Positions 1 to 61,036 of a stretch of DNA of 64,000 nucleotides are shown one piece after another. The stretch is from an uncultured beta proteobacterium (GTDB lineage: Bacteria; Pseudomonadota; Gammaproteobacteria; Burkholderiales; Gallionellaceae), in NCBI GenBank assembly GCA_963723415.1, contig CAVRQB010000005.1, positions 117,633 through 181,632 of the forward strand, given 5' to 3'. Position 1 is the stretch's first letter. The number at the start of each line of letters is the position of its first letter. The position numbers were made by a program, and so were the translations under genes. The notes beneath the pieces were generated by a model, which made no database searches, was not told the DNA's origin, and saw nothing but the letters and a program-made list of their open reading frames with translations.

Positions 1-891
1 CATGTCGGCCTGGCTGGAGGCAACAGCGAGAGCGGTGGATTCGCAGATGCCCTGGATCGCGCCGGCGTGCTCCCGCATGCGCTCCAGTTCCGCCAGAAAC
101 ACGCGCAGGGTTTTGGCCCGGGACGGAACATGCGCACCGCAGATCGTTTCAACCGCCTGGCAGTAGGCCAGCCCGTGGGCAAAAGCCGTCGTCGCGGCGA
201 AGCGCTCGGCGAGCAGCAAAACCTCGTCCGTGGTTTTTCCTTCGGCGAGCTTCTCGATGGCCCGCCATTTATAGAACAGGCGCGAGGACGAGCGGATGAC
301 ATCTTCGCCGACGGTTTCGAGCAGAAAGTGCACCGACTCGCTGACGCCGGAGTATTTGGGACCGATCGGCATCACGAACGCGCCCGGTGCGTGAAGAATG
401 CGACGCGGGCGCCAGTTTGCGTCGGGTTTGCGATGGCGCATGGCTGTTTGCGCATCGAAATGCCGGCGCATCGGTTCGACATTTTCCTGCCACACATCAT
501 CGTGCAGGATGAAATCACCGAGGCGCGGATGACCCGCAAAGATCAACCCATACAAATCCTCGGCTTCGCGTTCGTGCCAGTCGGCAGCGTGCACGTATTT
601 CACGATGCTCGGGAAGTTCTTGTCGGCGATAGGCGCGGTGACCCGCACCTGGACCCAGCCGGCATCGCGTTCGCCGTAAAAGGTGTAACGCAACTGCCAT
701 TCGCTCCCGCCCTCCTCGACGATCAGACCGGCAAACCCGAAATTCCATTCGAGGAAAAGGTAGCCGCACAATTCCGGCAATGCAGCACGGGCGCAGACGA
801 TTTCGCCGATGGTGTCCGGGTTGTCGAACCGGCATTGCGCCAGCTCAGGCCATCGTTGATCAATTTCAGTCTTCAGTTCGTCGCGGTTCAT
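1..891 (-). CDS. NuoC/NuoD-fusion, HyfG/HycE-like large subunit of a group-4-hydrogenase-related (Ehr-type) membrane complex. Only the 5' part is present; the C-terminus lies left of the window.
   Basis: This gene is absent from the ORF track because it runs off the left edge. I hand-translated the minus strand from the ATG at 891. It reads MNRDELKTEIDQRWPELAQ...DWHEREAEDLYGLIFAGHPRLGDFILHDD (NuoC-like), then MPIGPKYSGVSESVHFLLETVGEDVIRSSSRLFYKWRAIEKLAEGKT..LAERFAATTAFAHGLAYCQAVE (NuoD/HycE-like). The + ORF 67..1110 is its antisense shadow. Confidence 0.8.
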   Translation of the reverse strand, partial: MNRDELKTEIDQRWPELAQCRFDNPDTIGEIVCARAALPELCGYLFLEWNFGFAGLIVEEGGSEWQLRYTFYGERDAGWVQVRVTAPIADKNFPSIVKYVHAADWHEREAEDLYGLIFAGHPRLGDFILHDDVWQENVEPMRRHFDAQTAMRHRKPDANWRPRRILHAPGAFVMPIGPKYSGVSESVHFLLETVGEDVIRSSSRLFYKWRAIEKLAEGKTTDEVLLLAERFAATTAFAHGLAYCQAVETICGAHVPSRAKTLRVFLAELERMREHAGAIQGICESTALAVASSQADM

Positions 892-901
892 GGACTTTTC
901 C

Positions 902-2395
902 TTATCTCGTCAGAGCGGCTGCGGCCTGCGTCAGCAAATCGTTCAGCGGCCGTGGAATGTAAAAGCCAAGCACGAGCACCGGCACGGCAGCCAGTATCAG
1001 CGCCAGCCGGCAGCTTAACGGCAGGGGAGCATGCCCGGCGGTTTCCGGTACGGAAGGACTTGGTTCAACCGGGCCGTTATTTTCGGGCTCACCAAAAACC
1101 ATCCGGTTGACGTGCAGCATGATTCCGAAAAAGGCGATGACGATGAAAATGGCCAGCAGGCCAGTTGCCATATATTCCTTTTGAATAAAACCGGACCTGA
1201 GAATTGAGAATTCGCTCAGGAATACCGCCATCGGGGGCGCGCCGGCGATGGCAAGTCCGCCGAAGGCGAGCGCGGCACCCGCAACAGGCGACTGGCGGAT
1301 CAGGCCGCGCACGGCGGCAATTTCACGTGTTCCAACCGCCATCAATACGGCCCCGGCCGCGAAGAAACAGAATGACTTTGTCACGCAATGGGTGACGATC
1401 TGTTGCATTGCACCGTAACCTGTCACCGATGAACCCAGGCCGACGGCCGCCAGAATAATCCCCATGTGTTCGACCGTGGAGAACGCGAACATGCGCTTGT
1501 AGTCGCGAACCTGGAGCAGCAAAAACGCGGCGGTGCCGACCGAGATCAGGCCGAGAACCAGCGCCCAGGTGTCGGCGTGGGAATCGGGCGAGGCATGCAT
1601 CACCGGAAACAATCGCAATATGACATAAAGTATCGCCGAGGTCTCGATGCCGGAAAGCAGCGCGCATACCGGAGAGGGCGCCTGGCTGTGCGCGTCCGGC
1701 AGCCAGGTGTGCATCGGGACCAGGCCGACCTTGGTTCCGAGCCCGATCAGGATCAACAGGAACGCCATCTGCAACAGAACCGGCGGCATTGTCGGTGCCG
1801 CGGCAACCAGTCCGGTCCAGGTGTAAGCCGCGTCGCTGCCCGACGCCTGCATTGCGGCAAACAGAACCAGAAAGCCAAACAGCGCCATGCCCGCACCCAT
1901 CAGCGAAAGAACCACATATTTCCAGGCCGCCTCCAGCGCCTCGCGGGTATTCTCAAACGAGACGAGCAAAGCAGAGCACAGTGTCGTCAATTCGACCACG
2001 ATCCATACCAGTGTCGGTTCGGCGAGAACCGGAATGGCCAGCATGGAAAAAACGAACAGGTTGTAATTGGCATAATAGATCCGCAGCTTCCACGGCTTCA
2101 GGTTCTGCTGCGCCATATAACCGACCGAGTAGGTCGCCGCTGTTGTTGCGACAAACGCGATCAGCAGCAAAATCAGCGCGCTCAGGCCGTCGACTGAAAT
2201 CCATTTCAAACTGCCCGCGTCCAGCGCAGCGATGACCGGCTTCCCCGCTGAAGCCTGCAACGCGATTTCCATGGACAAAATCAAAACGGCTGTGCTGGAC
2301 ACAACGGTTACGCCTGCAGCCCAATGCTTTTTGAACGGAATGCAAACGAGCAGGGTCGCAATCAGGGGCAGCAGCAAAATGATGATGACGTTCAT
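902..2395 (-). CDS. NuoM/NuoN-type antiporter-like membrane subunit (HyfF/HyfB-like)
   Basis: This is the internal start MNVIIILLLPLIATLL of track ORF 902..2935. The ATG at 2395 overlaps the upstream stop as ATGA. It is polytopic, with the motif MHTWLPDAHSQAPSPVCALLSG typical of complex I antiporter-like subunits. Confidence 0.8.
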   Translation of the reverse strand: MNVIIILLLPLIATLLVCIPFKKHWAAGVTVVSSTAVLILSMEIALQASAGKPVIAALDAGSLKWISVDGLSALILLLIAFVATTAATYSVGYMAQQNLKPWKLRIYYANYNLFVFSMLAIPVLAEPTLVWIVVELTTLCSALLVSFENTREALEAAWKYVVLSLMGAGMALFGFLVLFAAMQASGSDAAYTWTGLVAAAPTMPPVLLQMAFLLILIGLGTKVGLVPMHTWLPDAHSQAPSPVCALLSGIETSAILYVILRLFPVMHASPDSHADTWALVLGLISVGTAAFLLLQVRDYKRMFAFSTVEHMGIILAAVGLGSSVTGYGAMQQIVTHCVTKSFCFFAAGAVLMAVGTREIAAVRGLIRQSPVAGAALAFGGLAIAGAPPMAVFLSEFSILRSGFIQKEYMATGLLAIFIVIAFFGIMLHVNRMVFGEPENNGPVEPSPSVPETAGHAPLPLSCRLALILAAVPVLVLGFYIPRPLNDLLTQAAAALTR

Positions 2396-3102
2396 TTTGC
2401 CAGCTCCTTCGCCGGCGGCTCGTCGCCCGATTCCTTCAGGCTGGAGAGTTTGCCCACCGCCGTTGTGCCGACATGTTTCTGTACTGCGCGTATCAGCACC
2501 CCGCTGATGAATACGATGATCAGGCCGTCCGTCGCAATCGCCAGCTCGACGAGCAACGGCAGGTTGCGCGAAATCGAAATGCCCGCCAGGAACGCGCCGT
2601 TTTCCATGACCAGCAACGCGATCAGCAACGGCAACGCTTCGCGGCGCACGGTGAGCGTGAAGGCGCCCAGCAACAGGCCGGCGATGCCGATCGGCACATT
2701 GGCGCCGCGAAATTCGGGTGCGACGGCATTCAACAATGGCTGGGCTAGAAAGTAAGCCAGAATCGTCAACCCCAAAGCGATGAGCAATGCGGTCGGAATA
2801 TTCAGCACCTGGCTGATTTCCCGGCGGCTGTAGATTTCTTTCGGGGTGGTCTTGCGCAACAGCCATGGAACAATGATCGGCTTGCTGATCAGATTCACCA
2901 GCGCGACGCCGTAAAGATGTCCGGAATGATGCCAAAGTCCCAGCAACGCCGCGGATGCGGCAAGCATAAGCGATTGCAGGATAAACAGATTCAATACACC
3001 GCGCACCTGCCGCATCGCGACAATGCCGAAAGCCGTCAGCAAAAAAACCCCGACGGCCAGCGCATTCATGTTGTCCAGCAATTGATTGGCCGTATCATTC
3101 AT
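2392..3102 (-). CDS. HyfE-like small membrane subunit (NuoK-related) of a hydrogenase-4-like complex
   Basis: The 236-aa hydrophobic ORF lies between the HyfC-like and HyfF-like genes, and its start ATG is at 3102. Confidence 0.7.
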   Translation of the reverse strand: MNDTANQLLDNMNALAVGVFLLTAFGIVAMRQVRGVLNLFILQSLMLAASAALLGLWHHSGHLYGVALVNLISKPIIVPWLLRKTTPKEIYSRREISQVLNIPTALLIALGLTILAYFLAQPLLNAVAPEFRGANVPIGIAGLLLGAFTLTVRREALPLLIALLVMENGAFLAGISISRNLPLLVELAIATDGLIIVFISGVLIRAVQKHVGTTAVGKLSSLKESGDEPPAKELAK

Positions 3103-3138
3103 TTACATTTACGCATGTTGGCATTTACGCATTTTGGT

Positions 3139-4089
3139 TCACAGGAAAAATATTTGTGCAATCATGGCCGCCACGGAAGTGATGAACGCGGTGCCCAGGA
3201 ATTCAGAGATCCGAAACAGGCGCAGCTTCGAGAGCGACGATTCGATCACAACCAGCACCAGCAAAAAGCAGAAGATCTTGAACAGCACCAGCGGTACGGC
3301 CAGCAACACCCCGCCGAGGGTATTCCCGATTGCCAACCCCCACGGCGTGACCAGCACATTGAGAAAGATGCACATCAGAACGAACAGTTTCATCTGTCCG
3401 CCCCATTTCATCAGCGCGAATCCGCGACCCGAGTATTCGAGCGATTTTGATTCGTCTATCATCGCCAGCTCGAAATGGCCGGCCGGGTTATCCACCGGAA
3501 TGCGTCCGCCTTCGGCCAGGATCAGCATCAGAAACGCCAATACCAGCAACAGGTGTGACGGCATGAAAAAATTTGCCAGCGGCGTCACCCATTTTTCCTG
3601 CACGATGTAAGGGATCGTTGATCCGGCGACAAACGAGACCGTGAAAAAGACAATCATGAACACCGGTTCAGCCAGAAATCCCACCATGCGCGTCCGGCTG
3701 GCACCCATCGGACCGTAAGGATTCGCCGTGTCTATCGCCGCAAGCGTGGCGAAAAAGCCGCCCAGCGCCAGAATGAATCCGCCGGCAATCATGTCGCCCA
3801 TGAAAGCGAAAAAGAGCGGGTAATTCGTGAGTACCGGAATCAGCAGGGTGACAAAGACCGGCGTGACGAACACGATGTAAGGCGTGAACCGGAAAATCCA
3901 GGAACTGTCTTCAGAGACGATTTCGTCCTTGTGGAACAGTTTCCACAAATCACGATAGGGCTGAAAAATGCTCGGGCCGCGCTTGGACTGCACCATTTCC
4001 TTGAGCCGCGACAGCACGCCGGAAGCCAGCGGCGCGAAAGCCATGACAACCAGAACTTGAACAAGGTTAAATAATATGTGCTCTAGCAT
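3139..4089 (-). CDS. HyfC/HycD-like (NuoH-type) membrane subunit
   Basis: The 316-aa polytopic ORF reads MLEHILFNLVQVLVVMAFAPLASGVLSRLKEMVQSKRGPSIFQPYRDLWKLF, the pattern of formate hydrogenlyase subunit 4 / NuoH. Confidence 0.8.
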   Translation of the reverse strand: MLEHILFNLVQVLVVMAFAPLASGVLSRLKEMVQSKRGPSIFQPYRDLWKLFHKDEIVSEDSSWIFRFTPYIVFVTPVFVTLLIPVLTNYPLFFAFMGDMIAGGFILALGGFFATLAAIDTANPYGPMGASRTRMVGFLAEPVFMIVFFTVSFVAGSTIPYIVQEKWVTPLANFFMPSHLLLVLAFLMLILAEGGRIPVDNPAGHFELAMIDESKSLEYSGRGFALMKWGGQMKLFVLMCIFLNVLVTPWGLAIGNTLGGVLLAVPLVLFKIFCFLLVLVVIESSLSKLRLFRISEFLGTAFITSVAAMIAQIFFL

Positions 4090-4124
4090 GAATCAGTTCC
4101 CTAATTGTTATGCGCCATGGCGCG

Positions 4125-4490
4125 TCACGGCATCTCCTGCAAGTCGCCTGACAAGCCGGGGGTGTCCTCTTTGTCTGGATTGATCACGCCAAAGCGTGCC
4201 GGGATATAGGCATAGAAGATCCGGATTTTTTCCCGGCGAACCAGTTCCAGAATCTTGTTCGCCTCATCGCCGGTGACGATGAATTCCACCTCGATCGTGA
4301 GCGTTCCGGCCAATTCAAAAAAATGATCTTCGTGAAGATGATGGTGGCGTCCGAACCCGGCCATCGCCCGAAAGGCAGACCCGCCGCGGATTCCGACATG
4401 GCTGGCCTGTTCCAGCAGCCACTCCCAAGCCAGAATCCCATGGCACCGTTGGTTTTCATGAACATAAATCCTGAGAAATGTTCCTTCCAT
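4125..4490 (-). CDS. DUF190 (PII-like) protein, a family commonly linked to crcB
   Basis: This is the internal start MEGTFLRIYVHENQRCHGILAWEWLLEQA of track ORF 4125..4874 (ATG at 4490). It is 121 aa. Confidence 0.75.
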   Translation of the reverse strand: MEGTFLRIYVHENQRCHGILAWEWLLEQASHVGIRGGSAFRAMAGFGRHHHLHEDHFFELAGTLTIEVEFIVTGDEANKILELVRREKIRIFYAYIPARFGVINPDKEDTPGLSGDLQEMP

Positions 4491-4503
4491 CGCGGTCTCC
4501 TTT

Positions 4504-4884
4504 TCAGTAGTTTTGCTGCGCCGGAATGACGCCGCGCACCCCGCCGCGCGGGTTTTGCATATCGCCCTGGTAGCGGGGAATGAGGTGCAGGTGGACGTGC
4601 GGGATCGTTTGGCCGGCAACCTCGCCCACGTTGACGCCGACGTTGTAACCGGCGGGGGCATGTTTGCCGTCGAGGTAATGCTTGGCCTTGTCGAGCAGCG
4701 ACAACAGCGCGATTTTCTCCGCCTCGGTAGTGAGAAAAAAATCGGCGACATGGCGCCTGGGAATGACCAGCAAATGGCCGGGGTTGACCGGGTATTTGTC
4801 CGGTTTGACATAGGCCAGATCGTTCTCGAGCAGGACGCTGTCCGGATTGCAGAACGGACAAATCTGCGTGCCATCGTTCATCAT
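4504..4884 (-). CDS. HIT-family hydrolase
   Basis: The histidine triad HVHLHLIP is present in a 126-aa ORF. Its start overlaps the crcB stop as ATGA. Confidence 0.85.
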   Translation of the reverse strand: MMNDGTQICPFCNPDSVLLENDLAYVKPDKYPVNPGHLLVIPRRHVADFFLTTEAEKIALLSLLDKAKHYLDGKHAPAGYNVGVNVGEVAGQTIPHVHLHLIPRYQGDMQNPRGGVRGVIPAQQNY

Positions 4885-5276
4885 GCAGTTCCTTTTGCCT
4901 TGAACCGGTTGACCGTCAGTATACCCATAGCCGTCATGACCAGCGACCCGCCGAGATGAACGGCGGTGTCAGCCAGGGCCCAGCTGTATTCGCCTCTGGA
5001 AATAAGCGCGACCGCCTCGGCAGAAAAGCTGGAAAAGGTGGTGAGCCCGCCCATGAAACCGGTGATGACAAACAGCCGGGCTTCAGGCGGCAGACTGGAA
5101 TAGCGGGAAAAGAAAGCGATCGCCACGCCGATCAGGTATCCGCCGGTCAGATTGGCTGCCAGCGTACCAAGCGGTAGCGTGGGGAAGATGGGGTTGAGCA
5201 TGATACCGAGCCGTCAGCGCAACAATGCGCCAAAATCTGCGCCGAAGCCCACTGCAACAAAGCCATAGAAGTCCAT
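4881..5276 (-). pseudogene. crcB: crcB (Fluc fluoride channel) with an in-frame TGA at codon 21
   Basis: The track ORF 4881..5201 lacks TM1. Reading the same frame upstream gives ATG(5276) MDFYGFVAVGFGADFGALLR-TGA(5214..5216)-RLGIMLNPIFPTLPLGTLAANLTGGYLIG. The stop sits where E. coli CrcB has Trp (..SVARWLL..). Confidence 0.75.
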
Positions 5277-5322
5277 ACCACTCCCCCGCCCAGGTTGATT
5301 GATCGTTTTGACTGATGGGCGG

Positions 5323-5362
5323 AAAAAAAGCCTACCGCCCCGTTGCCGGGTCATCGGTAGGC
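5323..5362 (-). terminator. Intrinsic terminator that serves as the expression platform of the fluoride riboswitch
   Basis: The minus-strand RNA reads GCCUACCG-AUGACCCGGCAACGGGG-CGGUAGGC followed by U7. The 5' arm re-uses the GCCUAC 3' end of the aptamer. Confidence 0.75.
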
Positions 5363-5422
5363 ATCATCAGCCCGTGCGGGCGATTCGGAACAAAAACTCC
5401 GGGAGGCATGCCATCTCCAGAG
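5355..5422 (-). promoter_or_regulatory. Fluoride riboswitch (crcB motif) aptamer
   Basis: The minus-strand RNA reads GGAGAUGGCAUGCCUCC..(CGGAGUUUUUGUUCCG)..AAUCGCCCGCACGGGCUGAUGAUGCCUAC. This matches the conserved GAUGG / GGCUGAUGAUGCCUAC core and pseudoknot (AUGGCAU with AUGCC) of the crcB motif. It lies directly upstream of crcB. Confidence 0.85.
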
Positions 5423-5425
5423 CGG

Positions 5426-5454
5426 AAGATAACAAGTGCCGCCGGGAATGTAAA
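5426..5454 (-). promoter_or_regulatory. Putative sigma70 promoter for the riboswitch transcript
   Basis: On the minus strand there is TTTACA, a 17-nt spacer, then TATCTT, just upstream of the aptamer. Confidence 0.45.
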
Positions 5455-5678
5455 GCCGACTTAAAGCCGGGTGCCAACCCATGCGCTGCGTGTACGCAGT
5501 TTTGACGCGACCGTTAATTGTGGTCAGGATCGGGCGGTCTGCAGTTGCCGGGGTATTAGGTCAGACTTGTCGCGGAAAGCTGCGTTTTGCGTTTGTCCCC
5601 CGCCATTTTCAACATTTAGGGGATCAACACTCAGGGGGCGCCGTTCAAGGGACATGGTGCCGCCGGCCCGTTTCTGAT

Positions 5679-5941
5679 TCAGGATTTTTTGAATAGTTCG
5701 TCAAGCGGATTTTTGCCCGCGGGTGCGCTGGCGGAAACGCGCTTCGCGGCAAACTCTTCCTCGATGTTGTCGCGATAGAAACTCCATGCTGCGCCGGACC
5801 TGCTGAGGCGCCGCCAGGCATCCTCGCCGACGCCGCTGTATGCAGCGTGCTGCCGTCGTCTAGCTGCACCTGCAGCATCCGGGCGCGGCTGTCGTAGCCG
5901 ATCGCGCGCAGCCTGCCCGAATTGATCTTCTTCATTTCCAT
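5679..5941 (-). pseudogene. KTSC-domain protein gene with a 1-nt frameshift
   Basis: From the ATG at 5941 the frame reads MEMKKINSGRLRAIGYDSRARMLQVQLDDGSTLH. The family-typical continuation YSGVGEDAWRRLSRSGAAWSFYRDNIEEEFAAKRV..KKS-TGA(5679) is in the next frame. The span is 263 nt, which is not a multiple of 3. The break is at about 5840-5843. Confidence 0.7.
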
Positions 5942-5988
5942 CGTGGACTCCTCAAGCTGTTCAGGGCATGGCCGCTTTGGTTCAAGGC

Positions 5989-6648
5989 TCAGCGGCCCAG
6001 CACTTCCTTGTGACAATCCGGATGGTCCAAAAAGCGCCACAGATACCATGCAGCCACGGCCCGGTAGGGGCGCCATTTTTGCGAGGTGAGCTCAAGACTT
6101 TTTGAATTCGGGTAGAGCATGCTGTGGGCGCGTATCAGTCCGCCGTCACCCAGTGCGAGCGCATCCAGTCTTTTCAGTCCGTACATCATGAAAACCTCTG
6201 CCGTCCAGGCTCCAACGCCCCAATACGATGTCAGTTTCTCAAAAACCTCACGATCATCAAGCCGGTCAAAGACCTTGTGGGATATCTCTCCGGCGATGCA
6301 TGCTTCGGCGATGCCTGTGACGGCCTTTATCTTGCTGTTCGAGATTCCGCAGGCCCTGAGCTGATCGGTGCCGAGAGCAAGAAACCTGTCCGGTTTGAAA
6401 GGTCGCCTGCCGTGGATGGATTCTATCCTTTTGCTTATGCTGCCGGCCGCCGCGGTTGAAAGCTGCTGGCCGATAACCGCTCTGGCCAGCGCATCGAAAG
6501 GATCTCTTTTTTCCTGGCCGATATCGGCGCGACCGAAGAGGGCGATCAGCTTTGCCAGCTTCTTGTCCTGCTGCATCAGGAATGTCTCGGGACTTGAAGA
6601 TTTGGCAGCCATGCAATTTTTTGCAATGTTGCGTGCTCTTTTGTTCAA
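5989..6648 (-). CDS. HhH-GPD family DNA glycosylase (AlkA-like 3-methyladenine glycosylase II)
   Basis: The ORF contains ..AVIGQQLSTAAAGSISKRI.., CGISNSKIKAV and WGVGAWTAEVFMMYGLKRLDALALGDGGL, which are helix-hairpin-helix plus Asp motifs. Confidence 0.7.
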   Translation of the reverse strand: MNKRARNIAKNCMAAKSSSPETFLMQQDKKLAKLIALFGRADIGQEKRDPFDALARAVIGQQLSTAAAGSISKRIESIHGRRPFKPDRFLALGTDQLRACGISNSKIKAVTGIAEACIAGEISHKVFDRLDDREVFEKLTSYWGVGAWTAEVFMMYGLKRLDALALGDGGLIRAHSMLYPNSKSLELTSQKWRPYRAVAAWYLWRFLDHPDCHKEVLGR

Positions 6649-7007
6649 CTGTTGATCCAGCGCATCGCCTGGTCACGTTCAGTTGGCGGGAAGTTCCTAA
6701 TCTCGCCGCTCATTGCTAGGGCGCCTATCTTGAAACCCCACTCCACCCATTTTGGACCGCCGATCACGCCCATCTTTTCGAAATCGTTCCGGTGTGCGAG
6801 CCCGAAGCGGGCGTCATCCCACGCTGCCGCGGGCTCCCAGCCATGGAATTCATCCTCGATATCCAGCAGCAGCCGCGCCTTGCCGTGGGCCTGGATGATG
6901 GCTTCCAGGCGGGGGATGAGCACTTCCTTGTAATCCCTGTCGGTCAACTTTCCGGTGGCGCCGAGGACAAGAATGTTTCCCTTGCTTTGCGGCGATATCG
7001 TGATCAT
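6645..7007 (-). CDS. SpoIIAA/STAS-like small protein (DUF3478-like)
   Basis: The ORF is 120 aa. My recognition of its pattern (GKLTDRDYKEVLIPRLEAII..ARLLLD) is weak. Confidence 0.5.
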   Translation of the reverse strand: MITISPQSKGNILVLGATGKLTDRDYKEVLIPRLEAIIQAHGKARLLLDIEDEFHGWEPAAAWDDARFGLAHRNDFEKMGVIGGPKWVEWGFKIGALAMSGEIRNFPPTERDQAMRWINS

Positions 7008-7066
7008 CGGATGCTCCTTTCAGAATCGATGTGAACTGCGGGATCCGCTTCGTTTCGACACAAGGA

Positions 7067-7624
7067 TCATGGAATGTTGAATATGGAATTGTGATCCTCC
7101 TCCGCCTTTGCCTGTTGCGCAAGATCTGCGGCACGCTTTAATGCTTCCCCGGCACCTACCGTGTCTCCCTGCGCGACGCGTGCCTTGCCGATCACCTGCC
7201 AGTTCTCTGCCTGCACACGATGCAGGTGCCCGGCGAAACTGTTGGATTTGCCGGCCAGCGCGATCGCCTGCGCATACTGGCCCTGGGCCAGGCGCACTTG
7301 CGCAAGTGCCAGCCACAACCAGGGATTGCGCGGTTCGATGCGCAGCGCACGTTCCAGCGATGCCCCTGCCGCATCATGCTGTCCGGAATCGCTGTCGGTC
7401 TGCGCCCGGTCCAATAGCGCGATGACAGCCTTGTTGCCCGACATGGCCGAGCTTGGCACAGGTTTCAGCGGCGGCGGTGCAATGCCGGCTGCCTCACCCG
7501 GCTGCTGTGCCGCGGACGGAGCGGCCGGGGCAGCAGTCCTGGATGGCTGTGTTGCCACGCCTGCACATCCGGCCAGCAACAACAGCCCCGCCGAAACAAA
7601 ATACCAGCCGAATCTGTTCTTCAA
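7067..7624 (-). CDS. TPR-repeat outer-membrane lipoprotein, a candidate PBP1B partner (LpoP-like)
   Basis: It has a lipobox LLLAGC, a Pro/Ala-rich linker and then TPR-like helices (ALRIEPRNPWLWLALAQVRLAQGQYAQAIALA..). Its start overlaps the mrcB stop (7621-7624). Confidence 0.65.
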   Translation of the reverse strand: MKNRFGWYFVSAGLLLLAGCAGVATQPSRTAAPAAPSAAQQPGEAAGIAPPPLKPVPSSAMSGNKAVIALLDRAQTDSDSGQHDAAGASLERALRIEPRNPWLWLALAQVRLAQGQYAQAIALAGKSNSFAGHLHRVQAENWQVIGKARVAQGDTVGAGEALKRAADLAQQAKAEEDHNSIFNIP

Positions 7625-9996
7625 TCGAATAACCTCTGGAACCAGTTTTTCTTCCCCGCATCCTGATTGGCCCCCGACTTGGAGTCGACCTTGGCATCAG
7701 GGTTCGTTTCAGCCTTGGGGGCTGATGCGTCTCCGCAGGGCGATGTCTGTGCCGGTGCAGAACCCTTGATGAAGGGCAGCACGATGCCCGCCTTGCATCC
7801 CTCATCATAGCGCAGCCCGCTGACCGGATCGACGTTCACCATCTCGATGCTCTCCGGCATCACCGGCTCCAAGGGCTCCGGCTGGATGTTCTTCATCATT
7901 TCGCCCCACACGGTCATCGCGCCCGAGGAACCGGTCAATCCGGTAGATTGGTTGTCATCGCGGCCGACCCATACCACCGCCACGCGGTCGCCGGTGTATC
8001 CGGCGAACCAGCTGTCGCGCAGATCGTCGGTGGTGCCGGTCTTGCCTGCCACGTTCAGGCCGGCCGGAAGCCAATTGATCAACGATTGCGCAGTACCCTC
8101 GCGCACCACGCCCTGCAGGGCCGCTGTCAGCAGATACACCGGCGCCGGCGGTGCGACGGGTTCGACGTTCAGCGGGAAACGCTGCAGCGGCTTGCCCTCG
8201 GCGGTGACGATCACGCGGATCGCGCGCAACGGCGTGCGGTAACCCCCGTCGGCAAAGGTCTGGTAAAGCTGTGACACTTCTACCGGGGACAGTCCGAAGG
8301 CGCCGATCAGCGACGATGCAAACGGCGGCGGGCGGCGGTCGATGCCGAACAGCGGCAGCTTGCCGAGGATGTTGTCGACCCCGAGCGCGATACCGAGACG
8401 CGCGGTCGCGACGTTATAGGATTGCGCCAGCGCGATGCGCAACTGCACCTGCCCGTGGAACTCGCGGTCGTAGTTGTTCGGCTTCCAATCGGGGGTGCCC
8501 TGCTCGCTCCACACCAGCGGACTGTCGTCCAGCGGCGTGATCAGCGTGTAGCGCTGCGGATCTTCCAGCGCCGTCAGGTAGACGATGGGCTTCACCAGCG
8601 AGCCGATCGATCGCTGCGAATCGAGCGCGCGGTTGTATCCGGCAAATCGCGCATCGCGTCCGCCCACCATCGCCTGTATCTCTCCGGTCTGCGTGCTGCT
8701 CACCACCACCGCTCCCTCCAGCGTGTTGGCGGGGGTCCTGCCGGCCTTCTCGATCGCCGCAAGTCGCGACTGCAATGCCAGCTCGGCCTGGTGCTGCACG
8801 AACGGATCGAGCGTCGTGAAGATGCGCAGACCCTCGCTGCGCAGATCCTCCTCGCGATAGTCGCGCTCCAGCTGGCGCTGCACGAACTGCAGGAATGCAG
8901 GGTACGGCGACGTGCCGGCTGGCGCGCGTTGCACCACACCCAGCGGTTTCCTGCGCGCCGCAAGGAACTGCGCCTGCGTGATGACATGCTGGCCCGCCAT
9001 TTCCTGCAGCACCACGTTGCGCCGCTTCAGCGCCAGTTCCGGATGTTTGCGCGGGTCATACACACTCGGACCTTTGACCATGCCGACCAGCATCGCGATC
9101 TCCTGCGGCTCGAGCTGGCCGAGCGGCCGATCGAAATAGAAATAGCTGGCCAGGCCGAAGCCATGGATCGCGCGGCTCGCATCCTGCCCGAGAAAGATCT
9201 CGTTGAGATAGGTCTCGAGGATCTCATCCTTGCTGTAGTGCATCTCCAGCAGCAGCGCCATCAGCACTTCGTTCGCCTTGCGCGTCAGCGTGCGTTCCGA
9301 ACTCAGGAAAAAGTTCTTCACGAGTTGCTGGGTGAGCGTGCTGCCGCCCTCGATGCGCTGGCCGGTGACGGTCTTGTACAGCGCGCGCGCGATACCGCGC
9401 GGATCGATGCCCCAGTGCGTATAGAATTTCCGGTCTTCGGTCGCGATCAGCGCGGCGATCAGCAGCTTGGGGACCTGGTCCAGCCTGACCAGCTCGCGGT
9501 CCTCGTTGTGGCCGGGATAGATGCCGCCGATCAGCGGGGGCTCCATGCGCAGCAGGGGCAGATCGGTATCCGTGCTGCCGCGCACCTGCAGCAGCGACAC
9601 CTTGCCGTCGGCGAACTCGATGCGCAGATGCTGCGAGGGCTGTGTGCCGTCCCCGAAAACGAAGCTGCGCGTCGTGAACTCGAGGCCATTCAGGGTGTTC
9701 TTGTAGGTCGCCGCCGCGTCCGGCAGCTGGTTCTCGTGATACCCGATGGACTTGAACTCATCGACGAACTGCTCGCGCGTCAGCTTCAGCCCGGGATACA
9801 CCTCCAGCTCGCGGCCATAGACACGCGCGGGCAAGGCGAATTTGCGGCCTTCGAAAGCGTCGCGGATCGTGACGTCAAGATAGTAGATGTAGCCTGCGAG
9901 CCCCAGCAATAGCAACAACGCGAAAATGCGCACCGGCCTGGCGGGCATCCTGAAATTGAAGCGGATTTTCTTCCATGACGGGGATGAAATCTTCAT
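7621..9996 (-). CDS. mrcB: Penicillin-binding protein 1B (bifunctional glycosyltransferase/transpeptidase)
   Basis: It has the GT51 motif EDRKFYTHWGIDP, a UB2H-like segment after the TM helix, and the transpeptidase motifs SIGSLVKP, SYN and KTGTT. Confidence 0.85.
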   Translation of the reverse strand: MKISSPSWKKIRFNFRMPARPVRIFALLLLLGLAGYIYYLDVTIRDAFEGRKFALPARVYGRELEVYPGLKLTREQFVDEFKSIGYHENQLPDAAATYKNTLNGLEFTTRSFVFGDGTQPSQHLRIEFADGKVSLLQVRGSTDTDLPLLRMEPPLIGGIYPGHNEDRELVRLDQVPKLLIAALIATEDRKFYTHWGIDPRGIARALYKTVTGQRIEGGSTLTQQLVKNFFLSSERTLTRKANEVLMALLLEMHYSKDEILETYLNEIFLGQDASRAIHGFGLASYFYFDRPLGQLEPQEIAMLVGMVKGPSVYDPRKHPELALKRRNVVLQEMAGQHVITQAQFLAARRKPLGVVQRAPAGTSPYPAFLQFVQRQLERDYREEDLRSEGLRIFTTLDPFVQHQAELALQSRLAAIEKAGRTPANTLEGAVVVSSTQTGEIQAMVGGRDARFAGYNRALDSQRSIGSLVKPIVYLTALEDPQRYTLITPLDDSPLVWSEQGTPDWKPNNYDREFHGQVQLRIALAQSYNVATARLGIALGVDNILGKLPLFGIDRRPPPFASSLIGAFGLSPVEVSQLYQTFADGGYRTPLRAIRVIVTAEGKPLQRFPLNVEPVAPPAPVYLLTAALQGVVREGTAQSLINWLPAGLNVAGKTGTTDDLRDSWFAGYTGDRVAVVWVGRDDNQSTGLTGSSGAMTVWGEMMKNIQPEPLEPVMPESIEMVNVDPVSGLRYDEGCKAGIVLPFIKGSAPAQTSPCGDASAPKAETNPDAKVDSKSGANQDAGKKNWFQRLFD

Positions 9997-60290: not shown

Positions 60291-60391
60291 TTAAGAAATT
60301 GCTTATCTGATGGTGTGAATGATGCGAATCATTCCACGTTTCTCCTCCCTGAGCGTGCGTCTTGACTCTATGTTGAGACTTTGCCCCTGGC

Positions 60392-61036
60392 CTACCTCCC
60401 CTTGGCTGGGGGCATTTTTTTGCCTGCCCTGTCTTCAAACCAAGCCGCCATGACCGCTTCGGCCTCGTCCACACCCGTTTTCTTCAAGCTGGAAAACAAT
60501 TGTACTGAACACTGCGGGAAATGCTCGGCAAGGTGCGATTTTACACGAGTCAACGTCAATGTTGCCTGTTGCCTGCTGAGCTTGTCGGACTTGGTGAGCA
60601 GGATATGCACCGGCTTGCCGGTAGGCGCGAACCAGTCCAGCAAGTTTTCGTCCAGTTCGGTCAACGGGTGCCGCGCATCCATGATAACCACCAGGCCTAT
60701 CAGCTCACCGCGCGTTTGAAGATACTCGCTGAGCAATGCTTCCCAATGGCGTTTGCTTTCAGGCGGGACTTTGGCGTAGCCGTAACCGGGCAAATCCACC
60801 AGAAAATTATTGTTGCCCCCCTCATTGTTCCCCAGGGAAAAATAATTCAGGTGCTGGGTGCGCCCCGGCGTCTTGCTGGTGTATGCCAGACGCACATGAT
60901 TCGCCAGCGTATTGATCGCACTCGATTTCCCCGCATTGGAACGCCCGACGAACGCCACCTCCCTGCCGCCATGCTGCGGCAGATCCTTGATGTGGTTTAC
61001 CGTGGTATAGAACGCCGCCTGTGAAAACAGCCCCAT
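60392..61036 (-). CDS. engB: Ribosome-biogenesis GTPase EngB/YihA
   Basis: It contains [26 protein letters not shown] and TKSDK. Confidence 0.85.

Follow-up and report, generated by a model that had tools for sequence, protein, structure and literature searches.

The closest described counterpart of the locus studied here is the regulon of the fluoride riboswitch (RF01734). The locus is a string of genes on a 64-kb stretch of DNA from Gallionella sp. (the window, to whose numbering all coordinates refer) that runs from such a riboswitch through crcB into genes for a hydrogenase-like membrane complex. An association between this riboswitch and 'formate hydrogen lyase' (FHL) genes was already published in 2010 and 2012 and is not new. 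Passages of Weinberg 2010 place these genes among the crcB-motif targets (PMC2864571), a passage of a 2021 paper repeats the association (PMC8004769), and the part of a 2024 review that cites Baker 2012 counts formate hydrogen lyase among the commonest riboswitch-associated enzymes (PMC11139923). On the enzyme side, the nearest described group is that of the energy-converting-hydrogenase-related (Ehr) complexes. Passages of PMC6349859 present them as relatives of group 4 hydrogenases that lack the Ni/Fe-coordinating residues, carry Mrp-like subunits and have no known function, and attribute the concept to refs 16 and 26 of that paper. In our literature searches we found no report tying Ehr complexes to fluoride, and no functional study of riboswitch-linked hydrogenase-like genes.

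We propose that the window carries a putative ON-switch operon under a fluoride riboswitch, and that this operon encodes an Ehr-type complex which is probably a redox-driven proton or cation pump; taken as a whole, this is a reading that we slightly incline to accept. The locus shares with the described regulon the aptamer, the ON design with an overlapping terminator, and the neighbour classes crcB, MutS, enolase, pyrophosphatase, HAD, Na+/H+ antiporter, Usp and 'FHL'. It differs in that the 'FHL' genes come without NiFe ligands and FdhF and in that crcB is interrupted. To the published association we add that these 'FHL' genes appear to encode an Ehr-type complex, that the linkage is near-obligate across phyla, that it outlives crcB, and that a cultivable, plasmid-borne example exists. 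The whole fluoride-linked gene string lies on the minus strand. Gene identities were taken from a Pfam profile search, and the HyfE-like product was also scored against NCBIfam. The features are as follows:

5426..5454, minus strand: promoter-like site TTTACA-17-TATCTT with an extended -10 element (TG-n-TATCTT); 9/12 matches, TG present
5351..5427, minus strand: fluoride riboswitch aptamer (crcB motif, RF01734); Rfam 44.2 bits, gathering score 34, E 5.4e-9, full model 1-64
5323..5362, minus strand: intrinsic terminator of the expression platform; stem GCCUACCG...CGGUAGGC at 5362-5330, then U7 at 5329-5323
4881..5276, minus strand: crcB (Fluc fluoride channel gene); Pfam CRCB/PF02537, in-frame TGA at 5216-5214
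4504..4884, minus strand: HIT-family hydrolase gene; Pfam HIT, 79 bits, ATGA overlap with crcB
4125..4490, minus strand: DUF190 gene (COG1993; PII-like according to annotators); Pfam, 66.3 bits
4090..4124, minus strand: DUF190/hyfC junction of 35 nt, without aptamer, terminator or promoter
3139..4089, minus strand: HyfC/NuoH-like membrane subunit; Pfam NADHdh, 113 bits
2392..3102, minus strand: HyfE-like membrane subunit with a NuoK-like C-terminal part; Oxidored_q2 21.8 bits (below cutoff), NCBIfam 'hydrogenase 4 membrane subunit' 76 bits
902..2395, minus strand: HyfF/NuoM-N-like antiporter-type subunit; Pfam, 159 bits
1..891, minus strand: HyfG-like NuoC-NuoD fusion (large-subunit homologue), first 297 codons; NuoC-type 30 kDa domain, 66 bits, continuing past the window edge

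An earlier sequence-only reading of this DNA had described a crcB-motif aptamer with an overlapping terminator and a plausible promoter, placed ahead of a run of tightly spaced genes. The aptamer does score above the Rfam gathering score over the full model, and its pseudoknot can be traced as the pairing of loop GGCAU with the complementary 3' tail AUGCC. The terminator, too, is as described: the stem is followed by UUUUUUU, and its 5' arm includes GCCUAC of the aptamer tail and so overlaps the 3' end of the aptamer. Together, the aptamer and the overlapping terminator make up a predicted ON switch of the usual design. The promoter at 5454..5426 fared less well. It owes its plausibility to its position, since the scan yields roughly chance numbers (3 sites versus 2.2 expected) and its count is not significant alone; within positions 1-6000 this is the sole site on the minus strand.

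Re-reading of the genes returned the same order (crcB, HIT, DUF190, HyfC/E/F/G-like), the same coordinates and the same spacings (ATGA overlap, 13, 35 and 36 nt, ATGA overlap, 10 nt), and the Pfam and NCBIfam matches back the identities. The absence of internal terminators and promoters that the earlier reading had reported was reproduced as well: a scan of window positions 1-6000 found no terminator-like or promoter-like site in any intergenic gap of the operon, the gaps measuring 0-36 nt. At the 35-nt DUF190/hyfC gap, a U tract is absent and folding is no better than that of shuffled sequence (z -0.95). We infer that in the window crcB would be co-transcribed with the genes that follow it, through to the Hyf-like ones. 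The operon is extended by a contig identical to the window (L001), from which the full HyfG-like product is 526 amino acids long. Beyond the window edge there follow a NuoB-like subunit with an N-terminal Fer4-type motif and then two HyfB-like antiporter-type subunits. The complete module, as read from L001 and longer relatives, therefore comprises seven genes, HyfC-E-F-G-[Fer4]HyfI-HyfB-HyfB.

We looked for the same arrangement in relatives. The HyfC-like protein, scanned against one genome per GTDB species, brought up 453 relatives, and the genome counts reported here refer to the best 80 of these 453, in which HyfC is 80-93% identical to that of the window. These 80 come from Verrucomicrobiota, Acidobacteriota, Nitrospirota, Beta- and Gammaproteobacteria, Planctomycetota, Actinomycetota, Desulfobacterota and others, and many of their loci sit in long-read contigs that measure from hundreds of kilobases up to megabases. 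The Hyf-like gene module is kept in 80/80 loci. A same-strand fluoride aptamer upstream of hyfC was likewise found in 80/80 (sequence descriptor), and a check against Rfam at the gathering threshold returned the aptamer in 21/21 of those loci examined. A strict regular expression recovered the aptamer in 28/85 loci only, and a looser descriptor gave many false positives. The refined descriptor missed the verrucomicrobial GCUAAUGA/GCUAAUAA variants and was extended, then checked against Rfam. Aptamers with GCUAAUGA or GCUAAUAA instead of the usual GCUGAUGA occur in verrucomicrobial-type loci (L008, L010, L011, L013, L014, L016, L023 and others) and still score 45-55 bits in Rfam.

A divergent set of metagenome contigs, with HyfC 60-84% identical to that of the window, gave a similar picture, the aptamer being present in 40/41 testable loci. 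Even the sole aptamer-less locus (L167) has crcB-DUF190 co-directional just upstream. The riboswitch linkage is thus near-universal for this clade of complex, across many phyla, and is not a peculiarity of one genome. Such conservation supports what the earlier reading had proposed, that this riboswitch would control an ion-translocating module of the NuoH/K/N/CD type. Moreover, the aptamer ends within 250 nt (≤250) of hyfC in 55/80 loci, so that the complex would be a direct riboswitch target in its own right. In 11/80 loci the distance is 251-700 nt, several of them having a single DUF190 gene in between, and in 14/80 it exceeds 700 nt, with crcB and DUF190 in between in most, as in the window. 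The window-like layout riboswitch-crcB-DUF190-hyfC is found in L008, L010, L011, L027, L034, L038, L068 and L082. Overlapping terminators accompany 53/80 of the hyfC-proximal aptamers of relatives. The gene most commonly met between aptamer and hyfC is DUF190. The HIT gene that separates crcB from DUF190 in the window is a lineage-specific insertion confined to this Gallionella lineage; among the 80 relatives, a HIT gene occurs in L025 only, at another position. Some HIT enzymes act on nucleoside phosphorofluoridates. An aptamer-like sequence was also noted inside the module of L006 (14836-14893), directly before the second HyfB-like gene, as a descriptor match only.

What kind of complex is controlled in this way? 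The HyfB-, C-, E-, F-, G- and I-like products find their best matches in E. coli hydrogenase-4 (HyfABCDEFGHIJ)/FHL-1 (7Z0S), the gene order C-E-F-G-I is kept, and the HyfG-like product matches best HycE of E. coli FHL (7z0s_E, E 3.9e-58). One could therefore expect a genuine formate hydrogenlyase or hydrogenase-4 that shifts metabolism to fermentation under fluoride. This is how the 2024 review reads such genes in the part concerned (PMC11139923), and public annotation ('formate hydrogenlyase subunit 4') agrees with it, as does the fact that the subunits are nearest to those of Hyf and FHL. However, the NiFe ligands are gone from the HyfG-like protein, where CGIC of HycE has become AATT (within ERFAATTAFAH) and DPCYSC has become DLSVAE. 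Both Cys pairs are missing from 68/68 large-subunit homologues, all four NiFe-ligating cysteines being replaced. A search of the examined loci out to 10 kb, with the remainder of each genome unsearched, turned up no fdhF, HyfA or hyp gene either, and no subunit reaches any NCBIfam equivalog cutoff. The sequence evidence contradicts the hydrogenlyase reading of the review for this clade, and we regard that reading as highly improbable. The motifs that stand in place of the ligands (ERFAATTAFAH, DLSVAENDR) are highly conserved across the 68/68 homologues, which argues for a distinct, constrained protein and not for a decaying hydrogenase.

With NiFe ligands missing and with Mrp antiporter-like membrane subunits in the cluster (the HyfF-like and the two HyfB-like ones), the complex is best classed as Ehr-type by the published definition. 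Features of its own set this clade apart among Ehr complexes, namely the Fer4 domain fused to the NuoB-like subunit and the two HyfB-like subunits. Compared with E. coli hydrogenase-4/FHL-1, the NiFe cysteines are replaced, HyfA, HyfD, HyfJ and FdhF have no counterpart, all that is left of HyfH is a one-cluster domain in fusion with HyfI, and the HyfB-like genes are 3'-terminal. Respiratory complex I (Nuo/Nqo) resembles the complex in its NuoH-, NuoK-, NuoL/M/N-, NuoB-, NuoC- and NuoD-like subunits and in the antiporter Glu/Lys residues. In contrast to complex I, there is no NuoE/F/G input module here; this NADH-oxidising module is missing from the operon of every locus that was inspected. When the HyfG-like protein is aligned to Nqo4 of T. 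thermophilus (2fug_4), His38 corresponds to Ser/Thr and Tyr87 to Ala. We take these two Nqo4 residues to be the quinone head-group ligands of complex I; the canonical quinone site would thus be missing as well.

Other functional residues of the complex are retained. In the NuoB-like subunit, 65-67 of 67 homologues keep the Fer4-type CP...CxxCxxC, and 67/67 have three of the four cysteines of the proximal cluster. The HyfF-like subunit keeps the antiporter residues TM5 Glu, TM7 Lys and TM12 Glu (TM, transmembrane helix) in an alignment to MbhH (6cfw_H). The HyfC-like protein is 60-93% identical to that of the window across L006-L170 and is 12-33 points more conserved than the HyfG-like protein in every locus. 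We note this as an unusually strong constraint on one subunit, the NuoH-like one, across phyla.

The fluoride channel gene itself is not intact in the window, although the sequence-only reading had treated it as such and overlooked an in-frame TGA at 5216-5214 (codon 21). The longest intact open reading frame of crcB begins at ATG 5201, the next in-frame start after the TGA, which has no obvious ribosome-binding site, and gives 106 amino acids. No intact frame encoding all four transmembrane helices is present, owing to the TGA at codon 21. With the stop read as Trp, the CrcB domain (PF02537) scores 90.6 bits over profile positions 2-103. An alignment with CrcB from related loci places Trp ('RW' motif) at this codon in 14/14 closest homologues (55-61% identical), and Tyr or Phe in more distant ones. 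Contigs of five assemblies from different samples have the same TGA, although indels set two of them apart from the window. Assembly error is thereby ruled out, and the TGG-to-TGA change is real and fixed. We also ruled out selenocysteine and a reassigned TGA, since the homologues have Trp and since TGA ends crcB and hyfE in ATGA overlaps. With TGA acting as a normal stop in these overlaps, crcB of the window would be either a recent pseudogene or dependent on near-cognate read-through, which would restore the ancestral Trp. The base after the stop is C, and TGA followed by C may be a leaky stop context. No second crcB was found within the 64-kb window.

Loss of crcB from the operon is not confined to the window. 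In loci of verrucomicrobial type, the stretch that leads from the aptamer to hyfC derives by deletion from riboswitch-crcB-DUF190. In some loci a crcB 5' fragment of about 80-100 nt runs into an intact DUF190 (L007, L012, L013, L014), others have a CrcB N-terminal stub fused to the last ~30 residues of DUF190 (L006, L017), and mere remnants lie between aptamer and hyfC in L009, L022 and L026. The crcB deletions in all these loci are independent, and each time the riboswitch stays ahead of the Hyf-like genes. Together with the stop codon of the window, they show selection within the operon apparently maintaining fluoride control of the complex and not the channel gene crcB.

Such a pattern could mean that the complex, possibly with DUF190, is a primary fluoride-resistance machine, an energised device that removes the proton load or even fluoride and is able to replace CrcB. 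Recurrent deletion or interruption of crcB in operons that always retain the riboswitch and the complex would then make sense; we nevertheless think this reading unlikely. A related reading, in which the complex acts on fluoride directly, by energised F-/HF (hydrogen fluoride) extrusion or by gating or energising export with DUF190, and can in this way replace CrcB, is in our estimate improbable. It would account for the repeated loss of crcB with retention of the riboswitch, the complex and often DUF190, for a window stop codon that is fixed in the population, and for the unusual conservation of the HyfC-like subunit. However, crcB stays beside the complex in many loci, and crcB or CLC-F copies elsewhere in the genomes could explain the losses. 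We know of no homologue in the superfamily that moves anions, which also counts against direct action.

Further evidence comes from plasmids and from the genes that neighbour the complex under fluoride switches. As open reading frame calls behind aptamers are noisy in high-GC DNA, only Pfam-confirmed clusters were counted. A conjugative plasmid of Burkholderia cenocepacia (L171, NZ_CP073671.1, 96756-115682) carries an Ehr-type cluster, with HyfC 42% identical, and this cluster includes an aptamer of its own, placed after DUF190 and before the NuoH-like gene. Five fluoride aptamers lie in these 19 kb, heading MutS, a hypothetical gene with a dynamin-family gene, HAD with an inorganic diphosphatase, the Ehr-type cluster, and a hypothetical gene; this stretch can be described as a putative mobile fluoride island in a cultivable host. 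In riboswitch-headed strings of relatives, the neighbours include a Na+/H+ exchanger with Usp (L131, L076) and Usp (L050). A tight string in L151, one of the loci of the divergent set, consists of the riboswitch, a cyclopropane-fatty-acid synthase, a dynamin-like GTPase, two small open reading frames and hyfC. Two side observations concern these neighbours. L076 has, at 6906-8186, a DUF190 fused to four CBS domains and then a Na+/H+ exchanger, both between aptamer and hyfC. Dynamin-family GTPase genes recur directly behind fluoride aptamers (L028, L075, L076, L078, L151, L171), a class that we did not meet in the passages of the fluoride-riboswitch literature consulted.

From these data the working of the operon can be sketched as follows. 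Fluoride would bind the aptamer and block formation of the overlapping terminator, and the whole string would then be transcribed, a step of which we are highly confident. Read-through would reach crcB (here disabled or leaky), HIT, DUF190 and the seven-gene module. HF would diffuse into the cell and dissociate, and F- would exit via Fluc, driven by the membrane potential; each such HF/F- cycle would import one proton and drain the proton-motive force. With moderate confidence, we infer that the fluoride-induced pump, probably powered through its iron-sulphur (Fe-S) chain, would expel protons or cations. An extra pump independent of fluoride-sensitive ATP-linked steps would offset HF-driven acidification. 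The proposed role fits the neighbours in the riboswitch-headed strings, which are genes for pH, ion or membrane stress (Na+/H+ exchangers, Usp, cyclopropane-fatty-acid synthase, dynamin-like GTPase). It is also consistent with passages of the 2024 review, in which Na+/H+ antiporters rank directly behind the exporters in frequency among riboswitch-associated classes and fluoride stress is tied to pH homeostasis (PMC11139923).

Several observations weigh against the reading of the complex as a fluoride-induced, redox-driven pump. The former NiFe/quinone pocket holds neither ligand set. The fourth proximal Cys of the NuoB-like subunit (GCPP) is Asn (45), His (10), Cys (5) or Gln (4) in the homologues, and a nearby Cys in 58/67 of them may or may not replace it. 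The pump role, which draws on homology and gene neighbours, is the less secure part of the proposal. The interruption of crcB means that fluoride induction of the complex 'together with the channel', as the sequence-only reading had it, may fail in this genome. Finally, a plasmid of Cupriavidus necator (L172, NZ_CP068436.1, 495213-514145) carries a Hyf-like cluster with 40.5% HyfC identity, in which the NiFe cysteines are absent too (GDST replacing CGIC), and no fluoride aptamer lies within 9 kb of it. The fluoride link would therefore belong to certain clades and not to all Ehr complexes.

The empty pocket also suits another explanation, that the complex is a redox-independent, Mrp-like secondary cation/proton antiporter whose NuoB/C/D-like module is only a cap with a structural or regulatory task. 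In favour of this, the complex has three antiporter-like subunits in which charged residues are conserved; the antiporter-like subunits match Mrp subunit A chains (6z16_A, 7qru_A), and single-gene Na+/H+ exchangers occur in the same riboswitch-headed strings. The presumed common theme with Mrp-type and single-gene Na+/H+ exchangers is pH and ion homeostasis under fluoride. In contrast to Mrp, which has none, the complex includes a NuoB/C/D-like peripheral module with conserved Fe-S ligands. The Fer4-type ligands and three proximal cysteines are almost invariant across phyla, which is hard to explain without electron transfer, and the strong conservation of ERFAATTAFAH and DLSVAENDR at the former active site speaks against a mere cap as well. 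We consider an Mrp-like antiporter possible but rather unlikely, and keep to the redox-driven pump.

The history of the operon bears on whether its Hyf-like genes respond to fluoride at all. In HyfC the window is 92-93% identical to verrucomicrobial and acidobacterial versions (74-88% in other subunits) and 84-88% identical to other proteobacterial versions (66-80% in other subunits). The genes upstream are of proteobacterial type: CrcB is 55-61% identical to proteobacterial and 35% to verrucomicrobial versions, DUF190 is likewise proteobacterial, and the aptamer is of the GGAGAUGGCAU type and not of the GGCAAUGGAGU type. With a verrucomicrobial-like hyf module behind proteobacterial crcB, DUF190 and aptamer, the operon looks like a chimera joined near the 35-nt gap, and its hyf module appears to have arrived by horizontal transfer. 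A plasmid origin of the cluster was considered and rejected, as there is no close plasmid match (best 42.6%). Many proteobacterial relatives have a second fluoride aptamer where the window has its 35-nt DUF190/hyfC junction. The resulting layout riboswitch-crcB-DUF190-riboswitch-hyfC is found in proteobacterial L047, L048, L052 and L062 (about 8800-9900 in each), and a chimeric junction may be why this second aptamer is missing in the window. A third, divergently oriented aptamer, heading an AAA-ATPase-like gene, was seen in each of L048 and L057.

One could argue from this that the Hyf-like genes of the window are transcribed as a unit apart, insensitive to fluoride, and that their adjacency to crcB is merely positional. 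In many proteobacterial relatives a new unit, with an aptamer and a terminator of its own, does begin at the DUF190/hyfC junction, and the module that follows it in the window looks acquired from elsewhere, being closer to verrucomicrobial versions. However, the 35-nt junction has no promoter-like or terminator-like site, and a single-aptamer layout with gaps of a few nt is shared by fourteen loci, L008, L010, L011 and L068 among them. In all relatives hyfC stays under fluoride control, whatever the layout. A separate unit is thus improbable in our view, and a single fluoride-controlled operon is the arrangement that we retain for the window.

Outside the gene string, the plus strand of the window has at 60333-60421 an Rfam match to anti-hemB small RNA (RF02837, Burkholderia RNA 7), with 53.1 bits versus a gathering score of 49.5, in keeping with a betaproteobacterial origin of the DNA.

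Overall, the locus joins two questions, namely why 'FHL' genes are so common under fluoride riboswitches, as noted in 2010-2012, and what the nickel-free Ehr-type relatives of hydrogenases do. Fluoride would be a defined inducing signal for an enzyme family without assigned function, and the conjugative plasmid of B. cenocepacia, with its five aptamers in 19 kb, offers a cultivable carrier for functional work. If the complex were a primary fluoride-resistance machine, this would be the first physiological function for an Ehr complex.

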